Positions 57,816 through 64,000 of a stretch of DNA of 64,000 nucleotides are shown piece after piece. The DNA comes from a virus. Taxonomy: Duplodnaviria; Caudoviricetes. Location: the IMG/VR virus record IMGVR_UViG_3300047283_000054; one strand, given 5' to 3'. Under the pieces are notes generated by a model. That model did not search any database and had not been told where the DNA came from. It saw only the letters and a list, made by a program, of their open reading frames with translations. Every line of letters starts with the position of its first letter. Positions within the stretch are counted from its first letter, which is position 1. Made by a program: the position numbers and the translations under genes.

Positions 57816-58399
57816 TTGAATACGTTTATCTAACTGATAGTGATATACCAAAGTTAGTTGATTTTTTTACAAAATCTACTACGTCAGAAAGAGCAGCCGA
57901 ATGGATGATACAAAGTCTAACTAATCAGTCATCTGATATTGTTATTGCGGCTGAAATAGTAAATGATAATATAAATGGAATTGTGTGTGGATGTACTCTA
58001 TCATATTGGATTAACGCTAAAACTAACTTTTTACCAATCTGGTTAGCAATACGTATGGATAGATTAACATCATCACCTACAAGCTTTGGTAGCTTCATAA
58101 AAATCACATCTAGGATGTTAACTAGTTTTTTTGAAAAGAAAAATTGTTTCCAACACTATATTATTCGCCGACTTCCTAAAAAAGATATGGATTTGCCTAG
58201 ACTACAGGAAGTAGTAAACAAATCTTGGGGGTTTTATCCGTACATTGCCACAGTAGAATCAGTAATTAAATCTAATGAGGATCTTGAAAAATCATGTAGT
58301 TTGTTTAAGACAATGATTAATACGTATCAATCACCAGTCGTTGTGTTATCATTAAATATCGATAACGCTACTAGAGAAAAACGATTATTCAGTAATTAA
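57812..58399 (+). CDS. Hypothetical protein
   Basis: 195 aa, ATGA-coupled last gene of the cluster. Confidence 0.5.
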   Translation: MIEYVYLTDSDIPKLVDFFTKSTTSERAAEWMIQSLTNQSSDIVIAAEIVNDNINGIVCGCTLSYWINAKTNFLPIWLAIRMDRLTSSPTSFGSFIKITSRMLTSFFEKKNCFQHYIIRRLPKKDMDLPRLQEVVNKSWGFYPYIATVESVIKSNEDLEKSCSLFKTMINTYQSPVVVLSLNIDNATREKRLFSN

Positions 58400-58810
58400 T
58401 GCATTTACCGCATCATATGAAGTTGACTTGTCGATTATATCAATTATCATATCATCGTCAGTAAAAATTTTTACTGTTCTTGTTAAATTAAACATTGTAA
58501 TCAAAGCGTTTCTTTCGGCTTCGGATTCATCGGACAATGCTTTATATGTGTTGAACTCCTCGTCGCTGACGAATACTCTCGAATTTATGATATTCCCGTC
58601 CGCATCTTCTACATTACTGTTAATTAAAAAGTATATGGCAGGCGAGTTATTAATTAATTTTTCAACATATGCTAAAAATGCAGTGTATTCTACTAGTGTG
58701 AAGCCGGTTGGTAAATTTGTTTCAGAATATAAATTAACAAAGTTTAGTGTGTTTGGCCACGGAATGCTATCTGGGGCATTTTTTTGCCATTTGGTTAAAA
58801 CCGCTATCAT
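58385..58810 (-). CDS. Hypothetical protein
   Basis: TAAATA (58838-58833) and SD AGGAG precede the ATG at 58810. Confidence 0.6.
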   Translation of the reverse strand: MIAVLTKWQKNAPDSIPWPNTLNFVNLYSETNLPTGFTLVEYTAFLAYVEKLINNSPAIYFLINSNVEDADGNIINSRVFVSDEEFNTYKALSDESEAERNALITMFNLTRTVKIFTDDDMIIDIIDKSTSYDAVNALITE

Positions 58811-58893
58811 ACAAATTCTCCTATTATTACTATATTTATGCCCGTTACAATTATACAAGTAATAGTATTTGGGTAAACAACCTAAAAAAATTG

Positions 58894-58922
58894 TTGACTT
58901 TAATTCAAATCAGTGTTATACT
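58894..58922 (+). promoter_or_regulatory. Sigma70 promoter upstream of the leader ORF
   Basis: TTGACT-17-TATACT. Confidence 0.7.
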
Positions 58923-58998
58923 TCAGTCTGAATTGAGAAAAGGTGTGAAAAACATCTGTTATTTGCACTAATTTACAACCAGGACTAAATAAAAGACT

Positions 58999-59136
58999 AT
59001 GATGAATAAAACTTGTAATTTGCTGAAACATTTGGGACAATGGCAGTCATTAGCCAGTGTATCCTTTGTACCAGCATATCCAACAAGTATTCGCGGCTCA
59101 AATGATAACCAAGAACGAGGCCCGGGGACTAGGTAA
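58999..59136 (+). CDS. Putative attenuator leader peptide, 45 aa, all 20 amino acids
   Basis: MMNKTCNLLKHLGQWQSLASVSFVPAYPTSIRGSNDNQERGPGTR*; ATG 7 nt after CTAAATA; not in the ORF track. Confidence 0.6.
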   Translation: MMNKTCNLLKHLGQWQSLASVSFVPAYPTSIRGSNDNQERGPGTR

Positions 59137-59205
59137 CAAGTTAACATCATAACTAAATTTATCTAACCCCTGGGAAACTAAAAAGTCTCAGGGGTTTTTG
59201 CTTTT
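59121..59205 (+). terminator. Intrinsic terminator with overlapping alternative antiterminator
   Basis: Terminator stem 59165-59175/59186-59196 plus U-tract; alternative pairing 59121-59136 with 59159-59174. Confidence 0.75.
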
Positions 59206-59227
59206 ACATAGAGGAATTTGACAATAA

Positions 59228-59395
59228 ATGGATAAAGAGATACAATACAAAACTTCTGAAACAAAACGTGATTGGTTTAGCAATCACGTTCTGACGAAGG
59301 AGCAAGTAGCACAGTTGATAGAAAATAAATTTGAACGTGCTAGAGTCCATCATGAGGCTGTTAAGAAAGTTAACCAACTGACTTACACTGATTGA
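59228..59395 (+). CDS. Small hypothetical protein (55 aa)
   Basis: MDKEIQYKTSETKRDWFSNHVLTKEQVAQLIENKFERARVHHEAVKKVNQLTYTD*; GAGG upstream; first ORF after the terminator. Confidence 0.45.
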   Translation: MDKEIQYKTSETKRDWFSNHVLTKEQVAQLIENKFERARVHHEAVKKVNQLTYTD

Positions 59396-59399
59396 TGAC

Positions 59400-59545
59400 A
59401 GCGTGAATAGGCAACGAGAGCCGTAATACAGCGCAAAATGTATAGAATGGGCGGACAGTAGGATGAAATCTATGGCGAGAACATAGAAAATAAAATCACT
59501 GGGTAGGGTATCGATCCTATCATGTCGTGTAGTAATACACGGCAT
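59400..59545 (+). ncRNA. Putative structured small RNA
   Basis: ORF-free series of hairpins, e.g. tctatg/cataga nested in cagt/actg, and atgtcgtgta-GTAA-tacacggcat. Confidence 0.4.
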
Positions 59546-59616
59546 TCTAAAACACACTATGGATAAACAGTACCCTGACCCTTCTGACGGGTTAAGCCTA
59601 GTGTGTTTTAGAATGC
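59542..59616 (+). repeat. Perfect 18-bp inverted repeat enclosing 39 nt
   Basis: gcattctaaaacacacta / tagtgtgttttagaatgc. Confidence 0.85.
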
Positions 59617-59691
59617 GACCTTAGCTCAGATGGATAGAGCACCAGGCTACGAACTTGGGGGTCAGGAGTTCGACTCTCTTAGGTCGCACCA
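59615..59691 (+). tRNA. tRNA-Arg(ACG)
   Basis: Cloverleaf; loop CTACGAA; encoded CCA. Confidence 0.93.
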
Positions 59692-59743
59692 AGATTTGAC
59701 AATAATTAATTTGTCTGATACAATACATTTTTAAGGAAACGAT

Positions 59744-59764
59744 ATGAAACGCAGTAAGCGATAG
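59744..59764 (+). CDS. Minigene MKRSKR* followed by hairpin/pseudoknot
   Basis: Own sigma70 promoter, SD AAGGA, ATG AAA CGC AGT AAG CGA TAG. Confidence 0.5.
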   Translation: MKRSKR

Positions 59765-59823
59765 TGTCGTCATAGACTTCCGTAGGTCTATGATTGGCAC
59801 GTAAAATCAAACATACGACTTAT

Positions 59824-59899
59824 GGAAGCATAACTCAATGGCTAGAGTAACCGGCTTTTAACCGGTAAGTTGTGGGTTCGAGTCCCACTGCTTCTACCA
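59824..59899 (+). tRNA. tRNA-Lys(TTT)
   Basis: accgg-CTTTTAA-ccggt; CCA. Confidence 0.92.
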
Positions 59900-59976
59900 T
59901 ATAAAAACATATTTGACTAAACTCGGGTTCATCCGTGATGGCATTGCTACTATATCAAGTGTGTTTTTCTATGGTA
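59895..59976 (+). repeat. 22-bp imperfect inverted repeat enclosing 38 nt
   Basis: taccatataaaaacatatttga / tcaagtgtgtttttctatggta (one mismatch, two G-U pairs). Confidence 0.8.
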
Positions 59977-59993
59977 TAGATTAAATAATATCT

Positions 59994-60179
59994 ATGATAG
60001 TTCAAAGTGTAACCTCAGTGAACGATATGGTTAATCACCAGTATCGTACCACGGTTTACAGTCAGTTAGTAGATCCTACAACTAATAAGAAAATTATTGA
60101 AGTTGTACAGTATCTTTATAACAAAGTAGGAGAGTTAGAGCCTACTCATCATAGTACTCAAGTAGACAAAAAAGCATAA
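59994..60179 (+). CDS. Small hypothetical protein (61 aa)
   Basis: ATG 6 nt after TAAATA. Confidence 0.55.
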   Translation: MIVQSVTSVNDMVNHQYRTTVYSQLVDPTTNKKIIEVVQYLYNKVGELEPTHHSTQVDKKA

Positions 60180-60180
60180 C

Positions 60181-60268
60181 GGAAGATTGGCAGAGTGGCC
60201 GATTGCGTCAGTCTTGAAAACTGAAGGCTCGAAAGGGCCCGTGAGTTCGAATCTCACATCTTCCTCCA
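60181..60268 (+). tRNA. tRNA-Ser(TGA)
   Basis: tcagt-CTTGAAA-actga; long variable arm; CCA. Confidence 0.92.
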
Positions 60269-60274
60269 ACATAT

Positions 60275-60351
60275 GGTGCTTGTCGTCAAGCGGTTAAGAC
60301 CTCGGATTGTGATTCCGATATACGTGGGTTCGAATCCCATCAAGCACCCCA
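60275..60351 (+). tRNA. tRNA-His(GTG)
   Basis: Loop TTGTGAT; G-1:C73; CCA. Confidence 0.93.
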
Positions 60352-60357
60352 AGTAAT

Positions 60358-60436
60358 GCCCCTGTAGACAAATAGGAAAAGTCGGTTCTTCAAGAGAGAG
60401 CGCCAGTTGTCGGTTCAAACCCGATCAGGGGTACCA
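60358..60436 (+). tRNA. Atypical tRNA, probably Leu (AAG or shifted CAA)
   Basis: Good acceptor, D and T arms; anticodon arm gttct-TCAAGAG-agagc lacks U33; short variable region. Confidence 0.6.
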
Positions 60437-60511
60437 GGATGTATAGCACAGCGGTAGTGCAATTCCTTCATACGGAATAGGTCAGTAGTTCAAATCTACT
60501 TACATCCACCA
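60437..60511 (+). tRNA. tRNA-Met/Ile2(CAT)
   Basis: attcc-TTCATAC-ggaat; abuts the previous tRNA with no spacer. Confidence 0.88.
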
Positions 60512-60515
60512 TTAT

Positions 60516-60592
60516 AGCCTCATAGCTCAGTTGGTTAGAGCACCGTCTTGATAAGGCGGGGGTCCTGTGTTCGAGTCACAGTGAGGCTACCA
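60516..60592 (+). tRNA. tRNA-Ile(GAT)
   Basis: ccgtc-TTGATAA-ggcgg; CCA. Confidence 0.92.
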
Positions 60593-60612
60593 CATATTTA
60601 AAGGAGACAATA

Positions 60613-60702
60613 ATGAATTGGAATCAATCAGTAGAACAACATAAACAAGAAATTGAAGCTTGGACATCTTTGTGCAATGAGTACAAGGAGTCTCTTTATT
60701 AA
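60613..60702 (+). CDS. Small ORF, 29 aa
   Basis: Strong SD AAGGAG; MNWNQSVEQHKQEIEAWTSLCNEYKESLY*. Confidence 0.45.
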   Translation: MNWNQSVEQHKQEIEAWTSLCNEYKESLY

Positions 60703-60711
60703 AGATAAAAT

Positions 60712-60789
60712 ACCCCCTTCGCCAAGTTGGTCTAAGGCATCGGATTTTGATTCCGACACTCCGAGGTTCGAATCCTTGAGGGGGTGCCA
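60712..60789 (+). tRNA. tRNA-Gln(TTG)
   Basis: tcgga-TTTTGAT-tccga; CCA. Confidence 0.9.
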
Positions 60790-61304
60790 ATATCATCAAA
60801 TACTAATAAATAAAGTGGTGAGTTTGAGTTGTTTTTATAATAATGTATACTTTTTAAAGGGAAGTCTATAATAGAATTAGAAATCTGATTTACGTCAATA
60901 ATTCTATTTTCAAAGAAAATTTCAACATTAGTATCTATATCTAAGTAAATCTGATATCGGTGTATTAATTTATTTGATCGCACAAATGGGATGTTTGCAT
61001 CAGTATGTGCATTTATCTTTTCCCCAGGTAATAGTCGGTGCCAATATACACGTCCTATTGCATTATTACCCGTAATACTTTTTAGAATATTTTTAGTTTT
61101 TGAAAAAAAATCCCATTTTTTACTTGTAACAACTAATTCGTTATTACACCATTGTAGATATATTGACTTTCCTTCTTTCAAAGAAGTTAAATTTAAATCA
61201 GTAGCATGGTTATGCCACAACAAATTATTGTTTACTAATTCTTCTTTTAAGTCAACTATTTCTAGGGATGTTAATTTTCTAATTAAAATTGAGTCATAAT
61301 ACAT
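60732..61304 (-). CDS. Aspartyl/asparaginyl beta-hydroxylase-like 2OG-Fe(II) oxygenase
   Basis: L-x-PG-x-x-I-x-x-HTD...R-x-x-I-x-L...H-x-x-x-N-x-S...LVFD; TAAATA 4 nt before the ATG. Confidence 0.7.
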   Translation of the reverse strand: MYYDSILIRKLTSLEIVDLKEELVNNNLLWHNHATDLNLTSLKEGKSIYLQWCNNELVVTSKKWDFFSKTKNILKSITGNNAIGRVYWHRLLPGEKINAHTDANIPFVRSNKLIHRYQIYLDIDTNVEIFFENRIIDVNQISNSIIDFPLKSIHYYKNNSNSPLYLLVFDDIGTPSRIRTSECRNQNPMP

Positions 61305-61322
61305 AATGTATTTATATACTTT

Positions 61323-61469
61323 CGGGATAGACGATAGGTTTGAGTCCCTGTCAATCTAGTCACAGTGGGGCTACTGTGATGACACTATAGTATGATTGAT
61401 GGGTGTATAAACTTGCCTATACGAGACAATCTAACGAGGCTTATTAACACTAAGATAGTTAGGCTCCCG
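61323..61469 (+). ncRNA. Putative ~150-nt structured RNA
   Basis: Closing cggga/tcccg; internal stems gatagg/cctgtc, tcacagt/actgtga, gattg/caatc, ctaac/gttag. Confidence 0.45.
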
Positions 61470-61479
61470 CCCTTTATAA

Positions 61480-61555
61480 GCCGATGTAGCTCAGTTGGTA
61501 GAGCGACAGACTGAAAATCTGTGCGTCAATGGTTCGATCCCATTCGTTGGCACCA
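61480..61555 (+). tRNA. tRNA-Phe(GAA)
   Basis: acaga-CTGAAAA-tctgt; CCA. Confidence 0.93.
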
Positions 61556-61618
61556 AAATAAGATATTATACATTTATTATTTACTAATGTGATAAATAAT
61601 CATATATGGGGAATTAGA

Positions 61619-61900
61619 ATGACAACATTCACAAAACAAACAATATGTACATATCAAATTGATATTGGATCATTATCACCTTTTTACAAAGATGAAGGCC
61701 TAGAAAAACTCAGTCTTTTAGAAAAAGAAGGAAAAACTCTAGTTTTTGGTTATACATTTGATGACCCGTATACTATTAGAAGACCATGGTTAGATCAAGC
61801 GGCCGCAGAAGAATGGGTAGCTTTTGTTACAAACTTAGCCAGTGACGATCAGGTCACTATCGTATCTATCGAAATAGTAGACTCAACCCTAGTAGGTTGA
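61619..61900 (+). CDS. Hypothetical protein
   Basis: R-x-W-x-DQAAAEEW motif; TAAATA and GGGG upstream. Confidence 0.55.
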   Translation: MTTFTKQTICTYQIDIGSLSPFYKDEGLEKLSLLEKEGKTLVFGYTFDDPYTIRRPWLDQAAAEEWVAFVTNLASDDQVTIVSIEIVDSTLVG

Positions 61901-61933
61901 CAAAAAATACAATTCAAGTATAATACTTACATT

Positions 61934-62008
61934 GGGTCCTTAGTTCAATGGATAGAATGCCATGCTTCGAACTTGGAGATGTGGGTTCGATTCCTGCAGG
62001 ACCCGCCA
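61934..62008 (+). tRNA. tRNA-Arg(TCG)
   Basis: Loop CTTCGAA; one mismatch in the anticodon stem; CCA. Confidence 0.85.
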
Positions 62009-62056
62009 ACACAGCATTAAATACAATCAGTGACAATAGCAGAAAAGGAGTACACA

Positions 62057-62617
62057 ATGGCTGTTCTAGCACTAGATATCTCAGGAGTTCCCCGGCAGTG
62101 GATCTCAAATGATGACGCAATTACCTATAAAGCAAAAGATGCCATCGCATGGTCAATGGGTGAAATTGTGGCTAAATATCGTGGTGGTATACAAAAAGAC
62201 GGTACACTAAGTTACTTAGAAACTAATAGCATTATCGCTATCAAAGGTCACGGATTCAATCCATATAAACACTCATGTGTGGCACTAACTAACAAAACAC
62301 TATTTGGTCGTGATAGACATGTATGTGCTTATTGCGGAGAGTACCATGCTAACTATCACATGCTAAGTAGAGACCACATTGTTCCAAAAAGCAAAGGTGG
62401 TGAAAACACTTGGATGAACGTTGTTACAGCTTGTAAAGATTGTAACAGTAAGAAAGGTCATAAGAGTTTAAAGGAAGTACGTATGGAATTGTTATACGCA
62501 CCTTATGTACCTAATCACTATGAGAATATGATATTACAACATAGAACAATTCTTGCAGACCAAATGGAATACTTGTTAGCAGGTGTTCCCAAACACAGTA
62601 GAATATTGCTATCATAG
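62057..62617 (+). CDS. HNH endonuclease (McrA-like)
   Basis: RD-x-x-x-CAYCG...DHIVPKSKGG...W-x-NVVTAC-x-x-CN-x-x-KG; SD AAGGAG. Confidence 0.88.
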   Translation: MAVLALDISGVPRQWISNDDAITYKAKDAIAWSMGEIVAKYRGGIQKDGTLSYLETNSIIAIKGHGFNPYKHSCVALTNKTLFGRDRHVCAYCGEYHANYHMLSRDHIVPKSKGGENTWMNVVTACKDCNSKKGHKSLKEVRMELLYAPYVPNHYENMILQHRTILADQMEYLLAGVPKHSRILLS

Positions 62618-62665
62618 GTTGACACAAAAGTTTTCCTATGATACAATACACTTAAATAAAAATAC

Positions 62666-62740
62666 GCCGACTTAGCACAGTGGTAGTGCAATCGCCTTGT
62701 AAGCGATAGGTCATCAGTTCGAATCCGATAGTCGGCACCA
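62666..62740 (+). tRNA. tRNA-Thr(TGT)
   Basis: atcgc-CTTGTAA-gcgat; CCA. Confidence 0.92.
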
Positions 62741-62746
62741 AATTAT

Positions 62747-62822
62747 TCTCCTATAGCTCAGTCGGTAGAGCGTTTGACTGTTAATCAAAATGTCCGTGGT
62801 TCGAGCCCACGTAGGGGAGCCA
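62747..62822 (+). tRNA. tRNA-Asn(GTT)
   Basis: tttga-CTGTTAA-tcaaa; CCA. Confidence 0.93.
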
Positions 62823-62831
62823 AACAAATAG

Positions 62832-62906
62832 CTGGCGTTAGTATAATGGATAATACAATTGCCTTCTAAGCAATCAATAGAGGTTCGATTCCTCTACGCC
62901 GGACCA
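62832..62906 (+). tRNA. tRNA-Arg(TCT)
   Basis: attgc-CTTCTAA-gcaat; CCA. Confidence 0.9.
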
Positions 62907-63130
62907 AATGTTGTTTATTTACAACAACTAAGAATTTGACAATAAATCCTCAATCTGCTATACTCTATGTATAGATTGATTGAACAAGTTCTTGGAAACA
63001 GAGACACAAAAAAGAATTTGACAATTAATCAAAACGGTGTTATAATAGACACATAGCAACAAACGATAGAGTCAGTTGCAAAAAGTTCTTTAAAATTTAG
63101 AATTCATATATCCCTGTTAAGTTCAGGGCT

Positions 63131-63337
63131 CTATATGTAAACATATTAAGGGTTACCTAATCCGTTAGGTACTTAGTGCGAGGACAGTGGGGCCGCCCAC
63201 GCTCAATCTAAGTATATGAAGCGTATGATAACGAAAGTTACGAACGTGACGGGCAGTTAGGCAGTAATGACAAAACTGAAAATATAAGAGACGGTCTTAT
63301 ATTAGAAGTGTAGTTCCCATAATGTGTTTTCATATAG
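63131..63337 (+). ncRNA. Putative ~170-nt multi-hairpin RNA bracketed by an 18-bp stem
   Basis: ctatatgtaaacatatta/taatgtgttttcatatag; inner stems acctaa/ttaggt, tacttag/ctaagta, gtggg/cccac, taac-GAAA-gtta, aatataaga/tcttatatt. Confidence 0.55.
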
Positions 63338-63339
63338 TG

Positions 63340-63466
63340 TGTTATTAGTTTTGCTGACGTAAGCCCCTGAGTAAACGTCAACTCTACGTAACTATGTGTA
63401 TAAACGGTAAACTTGCAAATAATTCCGTTGAGCATAGCAAATAGTGCGTCAGCAAAACTAATAACA
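63340..63466 (+). ncRNA. Putative RNA with a perfect 20-bp closing stem around 87 nt
   Basis: tgttattagttttgctgacg / cgtcagcaaaactaataaca. Confidence 0.55.
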
Positions 63467-63472
63467 TAATAT

Positions 63473-63547
63473 GCACGGTTCGTCTATCGGCTAGGACATT
63501 CGCCTTTCACGTGAATAAGACGGGTTCGATTCCCGTACCGTGTACCA
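63473..63547 (+). tRNA. tRNA-Glu(TTC)
   Basis: ttcgc-CTTTCAC-gtgaa; CCA. Confidence 0.9.
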
Positions 63548-63556
63548 AGTATTCAA

Positions 63557-63641
63557 GGAGATGCCGCCGTAATGGTATGGCAGGGGACTGTAAATCCTCC
63601 GACTTAAGTCACAATAGGTTCGATCCCTATCATCTCCACCA
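63557..63641 (+). tRNA. tRNA-Tyr(GTA)
   Basis: gggga-CTGTAAA-tcctc; long variable arm; CCA. Confidence 0.9.
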
Positions 63642-63656
63642 ATCATAAATATTATC

Positions 63657-64000
63657 ATGTTTACCCTTATTGAAGATAGTAGTCCTTTTTATGTAAGATT
63701 TACCTTTACCGGTATTGAAACTTTTATCGACCACATGAAATCACTATCACCTGACTGTTTTTATAAAAAAGATTGTGTAGGTTATATCCATTCGGATGTA
63801 ATAGAAAGTGAATCAGAAACGGTTTTAAAAAAACTCCCGTTAACAAAAAAATTTGAATTCGTCAAAAAACGAATAGGAGTATTTGAGACTTTACCATATG
63901 GTGGATGCGGTATTCACAAAGATGGTCATAATAGGAAAGTTAGTTTCAACATACCTATTGAAATTCACAATGAACTGTGTGTCACTAAATGGTATGATGA
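63657..64000 (+). CDS. Partial 2OG-Fe(II) oxygenase-like protein
   Basis: MFTLIEDSSPFYVRF...GGCGIHKDG...VSFNIPI, open to the window end; ATG 5 nt after TAAATA. Confidence 0.55.
   Translation, partial: MFTLIEDSSPFYVRFTFTGIETFIDHMKSLSPDCFYKKDCVGYIHSDVIESESETVLKKLPLTKKFEFVKKRIGVFETLPYGGCGIHKDGHNRKVSFNIPIEIHNELCVTKWYD

Follow-up and report, generated by a model that had tools for sequence, protein, structure and literature searches.

The analysed stretch of DNA (64,000 nt, in the following called the window; IMG/VR record IMGVR_UViG_3300047283_000054) is part of the genome of a large myovirus and encodes a portal protein, a major capsid protein, a ribonucleotide reductase, and SbcC-like proteins. 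Its capsid shares 66% identity with the capsids of Vibrio phage 2.275.O, PA5oct, and the GAP32 group, and none of the deposited phage genomes searched proved to be closely related to the phage of the window. The gene at positions 58385-58813 lies on the minus strand, such that the leader unit following it begins a new transcription unit on the plus strand, on which all further features are situated unless stated otherwise. A search of IMG/VR with the protein of this upstream gene as query did not find a relative.

The unit starts with a sigma70-type promoter (P1, 58894-58922), which consists of TTGACT and, after 17 nt, an extended -10 element (TG-TATACT), and which agrees with the consensus at 10 of 12 positions. 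Its -35 and -10 hexamers are kept in the relatives described below, although the upstream genes vary. Within the 5' UTR, a stem-loop (58942-58969) is predicted in the fold of the full transcript and exhibits compensatory changes among the relatives (e.g., GGTGTG/TGCACT versus GGTACA/TGTACT). The late-promoter-like motif CTAAATA, reported in a preliminary description of this DNA to lie 7 nt before the leader ATG, is found at that distance, with its coordinates slightly corrected to 58985-58991. It is part of a near-invariant stretch that also contains AGGA, 14 nt before the ATG; this is a poor spacing, whereas other genes here exhibit 5-10 nt. Over the entire window the motif is not enriched (16 copies found versus 19.8 expected); 9-10 of the 16 copies are situated directly upstream of gene starts in correct orientation, mostly of structural genes, and the distance from the motif to the start of the portal gene and of other structural and further genes is 18-53 nt (positions of copies before gene starts: 4844, 12066, 12082, 14889, 17011, 47545, and 58985). 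In this phage group, CTAAATA is a candidate late-promoter core. The relatives keep it almost unchanged, but this invariance is partly due to the design of the search pattern.

The leader ORF (58999-59136) comprises 45 codons plus a TAA stop. As described previously, its first 39 codons already cover all 20 amino acids, and 33 different codons occur in it. Windows of 45 residues with all 20 amino acids make up about 1% (0.8-2%) in the genes of this phage. There are 216 small ORFs (35-60 aa) in the window, two of which hold all 20 amino acids, namely the leader and its own antisense ORF; at a rate of about 1%, two of 216 are expected and two were found, such that this content is unremarkable within the window alone. 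The antisense ORF (59150-58968) was rejected as a gene, since it is interrupted by stops in 30 of 78 relatives. Concerning codon usage, the comparison with random windows of 45 codons, as suggested in the preliminary description, places the 33 distinct codons among the top 0.9% of gene windows, with the 20-amino-acid content at about 1%, i.e., at chance level in the window; the CAI of the leader (0.538) corresponds to the 2.2nd percentile. Among windows already possessing all 20 amino acids, 33 codons are ordinary (5-95% range 26-34.5), and the codon diversity of the leader is thus explained by its amino acid content, which implies as much. The rare codons at the 3' end of the leader are at the same time bases of the RNA helix described below. 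Forty-one of the 45 codons are matched by the tRNA set of the phage, compared to 82.5% genome-wide, a value reached by 10% of windows. The 'pan-codon' design proposed in the preliminary description was consequently rejected: the codon diversity follows from the amino acid diversity, and the match to a phage set of 26 tRNAs is not significant. There is also no run of any codon in the leader, i.e., the codon enrichment typical of leader-peptide attenuators is not found. The peptide had no match in Pfam, PHROGs, or NCBIfam.

Downstream of the leader stop, an intrinsic terminator (59165-59205) is followed by a second sigma70-type promoter (P2, 59218-59246; TTGACA, 17 nt, TACAAT; 11 of 12 positions), which begins 13 nt past the T-run of the terminator, is conserved, and overlaps the start of ORF2 (59228-59395), a conserved ORF coding for a protein of 55 aa (48-55 aa in relatives) that had no significant match in Pfam, PHROGs, or NCBIfam. 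The register of P2 is fixed in 52 of 56 relatives bearing ORF2: its -35 element begins 10 nt before the ORF2 ATG, and its -10 element falls in codons 5-7. Because the start codon of ORF2 lies upstream of the transcription start of P2, ORF2 should be translatable only from transcripts that have passed the terminator. Between ORF2 and the first tRNA gene, a structured-looking, conserved RNA region (59396-59614) is situated, conserved blocks of which recur in the relative L018 and directly after the terminator in the distant members L191-L193; blocks shared before the first tRNA are GGCAACGAG, GGGCGG, and GGATGAA. A search of positions 58000-64000 against Rfam (E up to 1) yielded only tRNAs and neither a T-box nor any other family. 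The tRNA array itself (59615-63641) contains 15 tRNA genes before the window ends, and tRNA-Arg(ACG) comes first in it, as it does in most close relatives. Relatives encode as many as 26 tRNAs, with every amino acid represented (L013).

Five more near-consensus promoters of the sigma70 type (11-12 of 12 positions) are located in the array, all on the plus strand (59696-59724, 61897-61924, 62619-62647, 62936-62964, and 63018-63046). Judged from their positions, these and P2 can supply tRNA transcripts that do not pass the terminator, which bears out the earlier caveat that sigma70 promoters might bypass the gate. The proposed gating of the downstream genes by read-through accordingly holds for one part only: ORF2 needs read-through and, by the arrangement of promoters, is predicted to be the only product strictly needing it, whereas the tRNAs are reachable from P2 and from the promoters of the array. 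P2 and ORF2 come after the terminator in most clades. In L191-L193 both are missing, and the conserved RNA and the tRNAs are situated directly behind the terminator; in these distant members neither a promoter nor an ORF is present between the terminator and the RNA and tRNA genes.

Homologues were collected as peptide homologues in a protein collection and subsequently by pattern scans of IMG/VR and JGI metagenomes. The pattern scans gave 119 copies of the leader with 69 distinct peptides, and a profile search of 1.84 billion representatives yielded 36 representatives of the family with a median pairwise identity of 41%. All relatives are on contigs of uncultured phages or metagenomes, mostly from freshwater, some of them approximately 350-520 kb long. 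A DNA search of INPHARED with the region returned matches to tRNA-Arg only, and tblastn of three family peptides against INPHARED returned nothing credible, such that the element is absent from the cultured phages of this collection. Vibrio phage 2.275.O, the closest cultured relative by capsid, does not possess such a unit; its ordinary small CDSs extend to 10 nt before the first tRNA. In every locus with enough downstream sequence, the unit precedes a tRNA array, the first tRNA being encoded on the same strand 220-1430 nt (mostly 400-560 nt) beyond the leader stop. The genes upstream of the unit vary among relatives, and its place ahead of a large tRNA array is constant.

The homologous leader peptides are 43-56 aa long. 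All 78 distinct leader ORFs have lengths of 129-144 nt that are multiples of 3, with indels in-frame only. Codons 27-33 (59080-59100) encode the core YPTSIRG, which is invariant in the family and constitutes its signature even at 30-40% identity; nearly all changes within it are synonymous (19 synonymous versus 3 non-synonymous), the Arg codon alone accounting for 9 versus 0. On this evolutionary evidence (reading frame kept, synonymous excess, antisense frame broken), the leader ORF appears to be translated. The core moreover appears to be under selection at the peptide level, which codon sensing does not need and does not explain. Nascent arrest peptides of the SecM and TnaC type stall the ribosome making them by means of a conserved motif, and the core may bear some likeness to that of SecM.

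The content of all 20 amino acids is retained among the relatives to a much larger extent than their variability would lead one to expect. It is found in 63 of the 69 distinct peptides; the exceptions are one clade without Val, a single sequence without Asp, and a single N-truncated sequence without Cys. The leaders without Val belong to the relatives L027, L035, L073, and L153, whose loci stop short of the end of the tRNA array. On the tree, 73 of 78 tips possess all 20 amino acids. Simulations along this tree started from six real sequences as roots, each column undergoing as many changes as observed and taking its residues from its own pool. They gave means of 9.5-25 such tips according to the root (five of the six roots gave 21-25) and a maximum of 69, and none of 1500 simulations per root reached 73. 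Of the distant representatives, 27 of 36 hold all 20 amino acids within 43-56 residues, the others being without one or two, whereas sampling the columns of the profile independently leads to all 20 in 19.7% (binomial probability of 27 of 36 about 1e-12). Both null models take the columns as independent, and the representatives are taken as roughly independent, such that the exact P values are soft, with direction and size of the effect being clear. Amino acids occurring only once that are lost at their position return elsewhere in the peptide, e.g., Phe at position 35, Asp at 18, Lys near the C-terminus, and Cys at 17. Selection thus appears to keep all 20 amino acids in the leader, and the support that this lends to a putative gauge of all 20 amino acids is statistical.

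Concerning the RNA structures, the end of the leader ORF including its stop codon (Region 2, 59121-59136) constitutes the 5' arm of a putative antiterminator, the 3' arm of which (Region 3, 59159-59174) overlaps the 5' arm of the terminator. The pairing at 14 of 16 positions, the inner stem, and the overlap given in the preliminary description were all found as described: Region 2 and Region 3 form 12 Watson-Crick and 2 G-U pairs with 2 mismatches, divided into stem 1 (CCCGGGG in the 5' arm) and stem 2 (TAGGTAA, with the stop codon), and they enclose stem 3, an apical hairpin (59139-59154; AGTTA/TAACT, 59139-43 with 59150-54). Altogether, a helix of approximately 19 bp with internal loops results. 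An equally favourable duplex (-20.7 kcal/mol) arises in 0.35% of cases when the upstream 99 nt are dinucleotide-shuffled, and in none of 1720 other windows of 99 nt. The terminator possesses a G+C-rich stem of 9 bp (59167-75 with 59186-94), which extends to 11 bp with 59165-66 and 59195-96 included, and then the T-run TTTTTGCTTTT; it was missed by a simple terminator scan because its loop is 10 nt long.

Both structures are conserved. Across 46 relatives, pairing in the terminator extends to 98% of cells, and 6 relatives exhibit double changes from C-G to A-U; the T-run is strong in 71 and weak in 6 of the 78 relatives. For most relatives the terminator energy lies between -16.6 and -19.6 kcal/mol, L040 and L057 being at about -12 kcal/mol; antiterminator energies are -16 to -22 kcal/mol in nearly all of them (-24.7 kcal/mol in L035). 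In a model-based alignment of the antiterminator, 90% of cells are paired and 5 pairs are doubly changed (46 cells), which exceeds all 500 shuffles and every slid control. Stem 2, containing the stop codon, covaries (TAGGTAA/TTATCTA versus GGAATAA/TTATTTT, TAGA/TCTA, and GGTAAACA/TGTTTATT), stem 3 shows a pair of compensatory insertions (GTTTA/TAAAC) in L008 and L017, and in stem 1 a G-U pair is changed to A-U in L049 and a C-G pair to U-A in L196. MAFFT and covariance-model alignments misplace clades in which CCCGGGG is shifted by 1 nt, and the share of 'unpaired' cells at two pairs of stem 1 is inflated by this misregistration; folds of the individual sequences reveal 6-7 pairs in stem 1 in all members. 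The heptamer CCCGGGG persists in two codon phases, in which different C-termini are encoded (GPGTR versus PRGTE), and in the codon preceding it positions 1 and 2 vary and a C in third position is kept, which argues for selection on the RNA. The same architecture is built from other sequence in L191 (GGGACCAAA with UUUGGUCCC), and L193 is similar. The leader stop codon is situated inside the antiterminator in every member, namely in its apical part in L194 and L195, which belong to a subfamily with a longer ORF. The expectation of the preliminary description that leader ORF, 20-amino-acid content, and alternative antiterminator and terminator would be conserved in relatives with covariation is therefore borne out.

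Which of the two structures is obtained depends on the length of RNA that is folded: the local fold is the antiterminator and the fold of the full transcript is the terminator. RNA cut before the 3' arm of the terminator folds to the antiterminator in all 46 relatives examined in this way, and truncated RNA folded from the ATG does so in 77 of 78. The minimum-energy folds of the full-length RNAs of the relatives flip between the two states, whose energies are close, and for the RNA of the window without a ribosome both the minimum-energy fold and the ensemble favour the terminator (P 0.98). Masking of ribosome footprints at equilibrium gave mixed results, several stall positions also yielding the terminator, and is not counted as support here. 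Regarding the attenuator logic put forward in the preliminary description, the anatomy, i.e., the stop codon within the antiterminator and the folds of truncated RNA, thus fits, whereas the equilibrium folds with masked footprints are equivocal. As these folds are mixed and the ensemble favours the terminator, the argument for a switch is a kinetic one, according to which the antiterminator would be complete before region 4 exists.

Since all three features (the gene with 20 amino acids, the competing hairpin, and the stop signal) are kept in more than 100 relatives, the unit is probably a switch; the element is real and conserved, and it is probably regulatory. The explanation that we prefer, with a probability of roughly 0.55, is a ribosome-mediated attenuator that gauges overall decoding and gates the ORF of 55 aa, the unnamed RNA, and the tRNAs. 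Transcripts starting at P1 would carry the leader of 45 codons, and its last codons together with the stop would form the 5' arm of the three-stem antiterminator. A leading ribosome that is on pace would reach the stop and cover approximately 59119-59141, leaving Region 3 free, in which case the terminator would form and the transcript would end near 59200. If the ribosome were absent or delayed earlier in the leader, the antiterminator would arise before the 3' arm of the terminator is made, and RNA polymerase would continue into ORF2, the conserved RNA, and the tRNAs. With at least one codon per amino acid kept by selection, such a switch would report overall decoding capacity, not a single amino acid. 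From this arrangement we infer that the folding is decided by the position of the ribosome and that read-through is of importance for the supply of tRNAs. Points against this explanation are the promoters that bypass the gate, the mixed equilibrium folds, the peptide-level selection on YPTSIRG, the poor spacing of AGGA, the weak T-runs of six relatives, and the lack of a special match between leader codons and phage tRNAs.

A broader version, namely a universal gauge of decoding in which any shortage, lack of charging, or cleavage of a tRNA raises the phage tRNAs together with ORF2 as an effector, is put forward more tentatively, at somewhat below even odds. The signal could be tRNA cleavage, e.g., by host anticodon nucleases, or the phage-induced decay of host tRNAs. 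For the preferred attenuator, too, the extent of the sensing zone, in which a stalled ribosome would leave the antiterminator free, is a caveat. A limit at P+11 (counted from the P site), set by the ribosomal helicase, is assumed here for the persistence of a downstream duplex. All 20 amino acids are included in the sensing zone (53 of 62 peptides) only if the duplex persists to P+11, whereas at P+12 or more mostly 19 are included. In 33 of 62 peptides the residue completing the set, mostly Glu, is situated only 8 nt before stem 1, and because of this proximity to the antiterminator arm a stall at this residue may not relieve termination.

The position of Glu at the edge of the sensing zone would equally suit an attenuator that is real and gauges only the coupling of transcription and translation, or that responds to stalling at few codons of the TSIRG stretch, the critical one being, e.g., the invariant and rare Arg codon (CGC or CGT), with the content of all 20 amino acids being a side effect of constraints on the peptide. 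CGC is indeed rare in the genes of the phage (2.2 per 1000), and the array opens with its reader, tRNA-Arg(ACG). Furthermore, the IRG codons harbour Region 1 (59090-59098), which pairs with 59119-59126 in Region 2; this pairing is found in all relatives and is preserved by the synonymous changes observed (CGC/CGT, GGC/GGT), and when Region 1 is masked, with the A site at codon 36, the antiterminator becomes the equilibrium fold. The predicted pairing, which might add an anti-antiterminator similar to that of trp, has an energy of only about -8 kcal/mol, and the antiterminator prevails over it in the truncated folds of 77 of 78 relatives. The excess of peptides with all 20 amino acids over two null models and the relocation of amino acids occurring once would also require another cause, and we consider this alternative unlikely.

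More doubtful still is the alternative that the ORF codes for a functional small protein or for a nascent peptide causing arrest or pausing, and that the hairpins end or stabilise the transcript or serve as a processing site of the RNase III type. The strong purifying selection on the core, with its ratio of 19 synonymous to 3 non-synonymous changes, and the persistence of YPTSIRG as the family signature would be expected of such a protein, and the antiterminator helix with its internal loops and the weak T-runs in some relatives are compatible with the suggested functions of the hairpins, whereas the peptide is without a match in the three protein family collections searched. Left unexplained by this alternative are the stop codon, which is always situated in a covarying helix that competes with the terminator, the occurrence of CCCGGGG in two phases with changing C-terminal residues, the fixed site before tRNA arrays, and the retention of all 20 amino acids.

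Least probable is a discrimination between promoters, in which early transcripts from P1 would carry the 5' UTR, be translated, and terminate, and late transcripts from CTAAATA would start at or next to the ATG, be poorly translated, form the antiterminator, and read through, leading to late tRNA expression: the short distance of 7 nt to the ATG, the near-invariance of the motif and its occurrence before structural genes, and the folding of truncated RNA without a ribosome to the antiterminator agree with it, but the late-promoter function is assumed only by analogy with the T4-type motif TATAAATA, the invariance is partly a product of the search pattern, the content of all 20 amino acids is left unexplained, and the proposal is compatible with the preferred attenuator instead of exclusive of it.

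The general organization of the unit is similar to that of the attenuators of amino acid operons (the trpL, hisL, leuL, thrL, and ilv leaders), in which a ribosome at the leader stop favours termination. A short translated leader, an intrinsic terminator, an antiterminator exclusive of it, and a choice by ribosome position (as proposed here) are common to both. There are, however, several differences between them: The phage leader has no runs of codons for a single amino acid, every amino acid occurring mostly once or twice; its stop codon is situated inside the antiterminator arm and not before it, and the anti-antiterminator is weak; and it is followed by a small ORF, an RNA, and tRNAs instead of genes for biosynthetic enzymes. 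T-box riboswitches bind one uncharged tRNA directly and do not need translation. They resemble the proposed phage switch in that a terminator and an antiterminator report the charging of tRNAs, whereas the phage region has no T-box match in Rfam. To our knowledge, the leader-peptide attenuators described so far each respond to a single amino acid or a few, and the known uORFs responding to general translation stress were discovered through antibiotics. For the bmrB leader of Bacillus subtilis we know of no constraint on composition.

In the bmrB-bmrCD attenuator, translation of the leader controls an intrinsic terminator, and the attenuator is described as sensing a general slowing of translation and not a single amino acid (PMC4191407). 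Unlike the phage unit, it is bacterial; it is induced by antibiotics targeting the ribosome and controls a transporter. The toiL uORF of topAI-yjhQ in E. coli is a single short ORF with stalling at several codons for several causes; the antibiotics that it reportedly senses belong to several ribosome-targeting classes, and it regulates a toxin-antitoxin operon (PMC12121999). It is not known to have an intrinsic-terminator switch of the kind of the phage unit. In mycobacteria, the response of the whiB7 uORF is tied to translation stress and alanine starvation; unlike the phage unit, this system responds to alanine and antibiotics, controls a transcription factor, and is unrelated to tRNA genes (PMC10274678). 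By function, these general translation-stress leaders (bmrB, toiL, and the whiB7 uORF) would be nearest to the phage unit, the anatomy of which is compatible with such a role. A literature search found no published account of leader peptides that precede phage tRNA genes.

If the preferred reading is true, the unit would represent a new sensing logic, with overall decoding capacity as the signal and with tRNAs, which need no translation themselves, as the output, and a leader kept by selection to contain all 20 amino acids would be fixed before viral tRNA arrays that themselves cover all 20. It would be linked to the questions of why large phages carry sets of tRNAs (PMC10264068, PMC11025619) and how phages answer defences that target tRNAs (PMC11464382, PMC11555353). 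With approximately 280 nt, it would also constitute a compact sensor part suited to cell-free testing.

Within the tRNA array of the window, an ORF on the minus strand (60732-61304) exhibits a weak similarity to Asp/Asn beta-hydroxylases, and a gene for an HNH endonuclease (62030-62617, plus strand) is embedded among the tRNA genes. The tRNA-Leu at 60358-60436 has the unusual anticodon AAG and the lowest tRNA model score in the array (37 bits).
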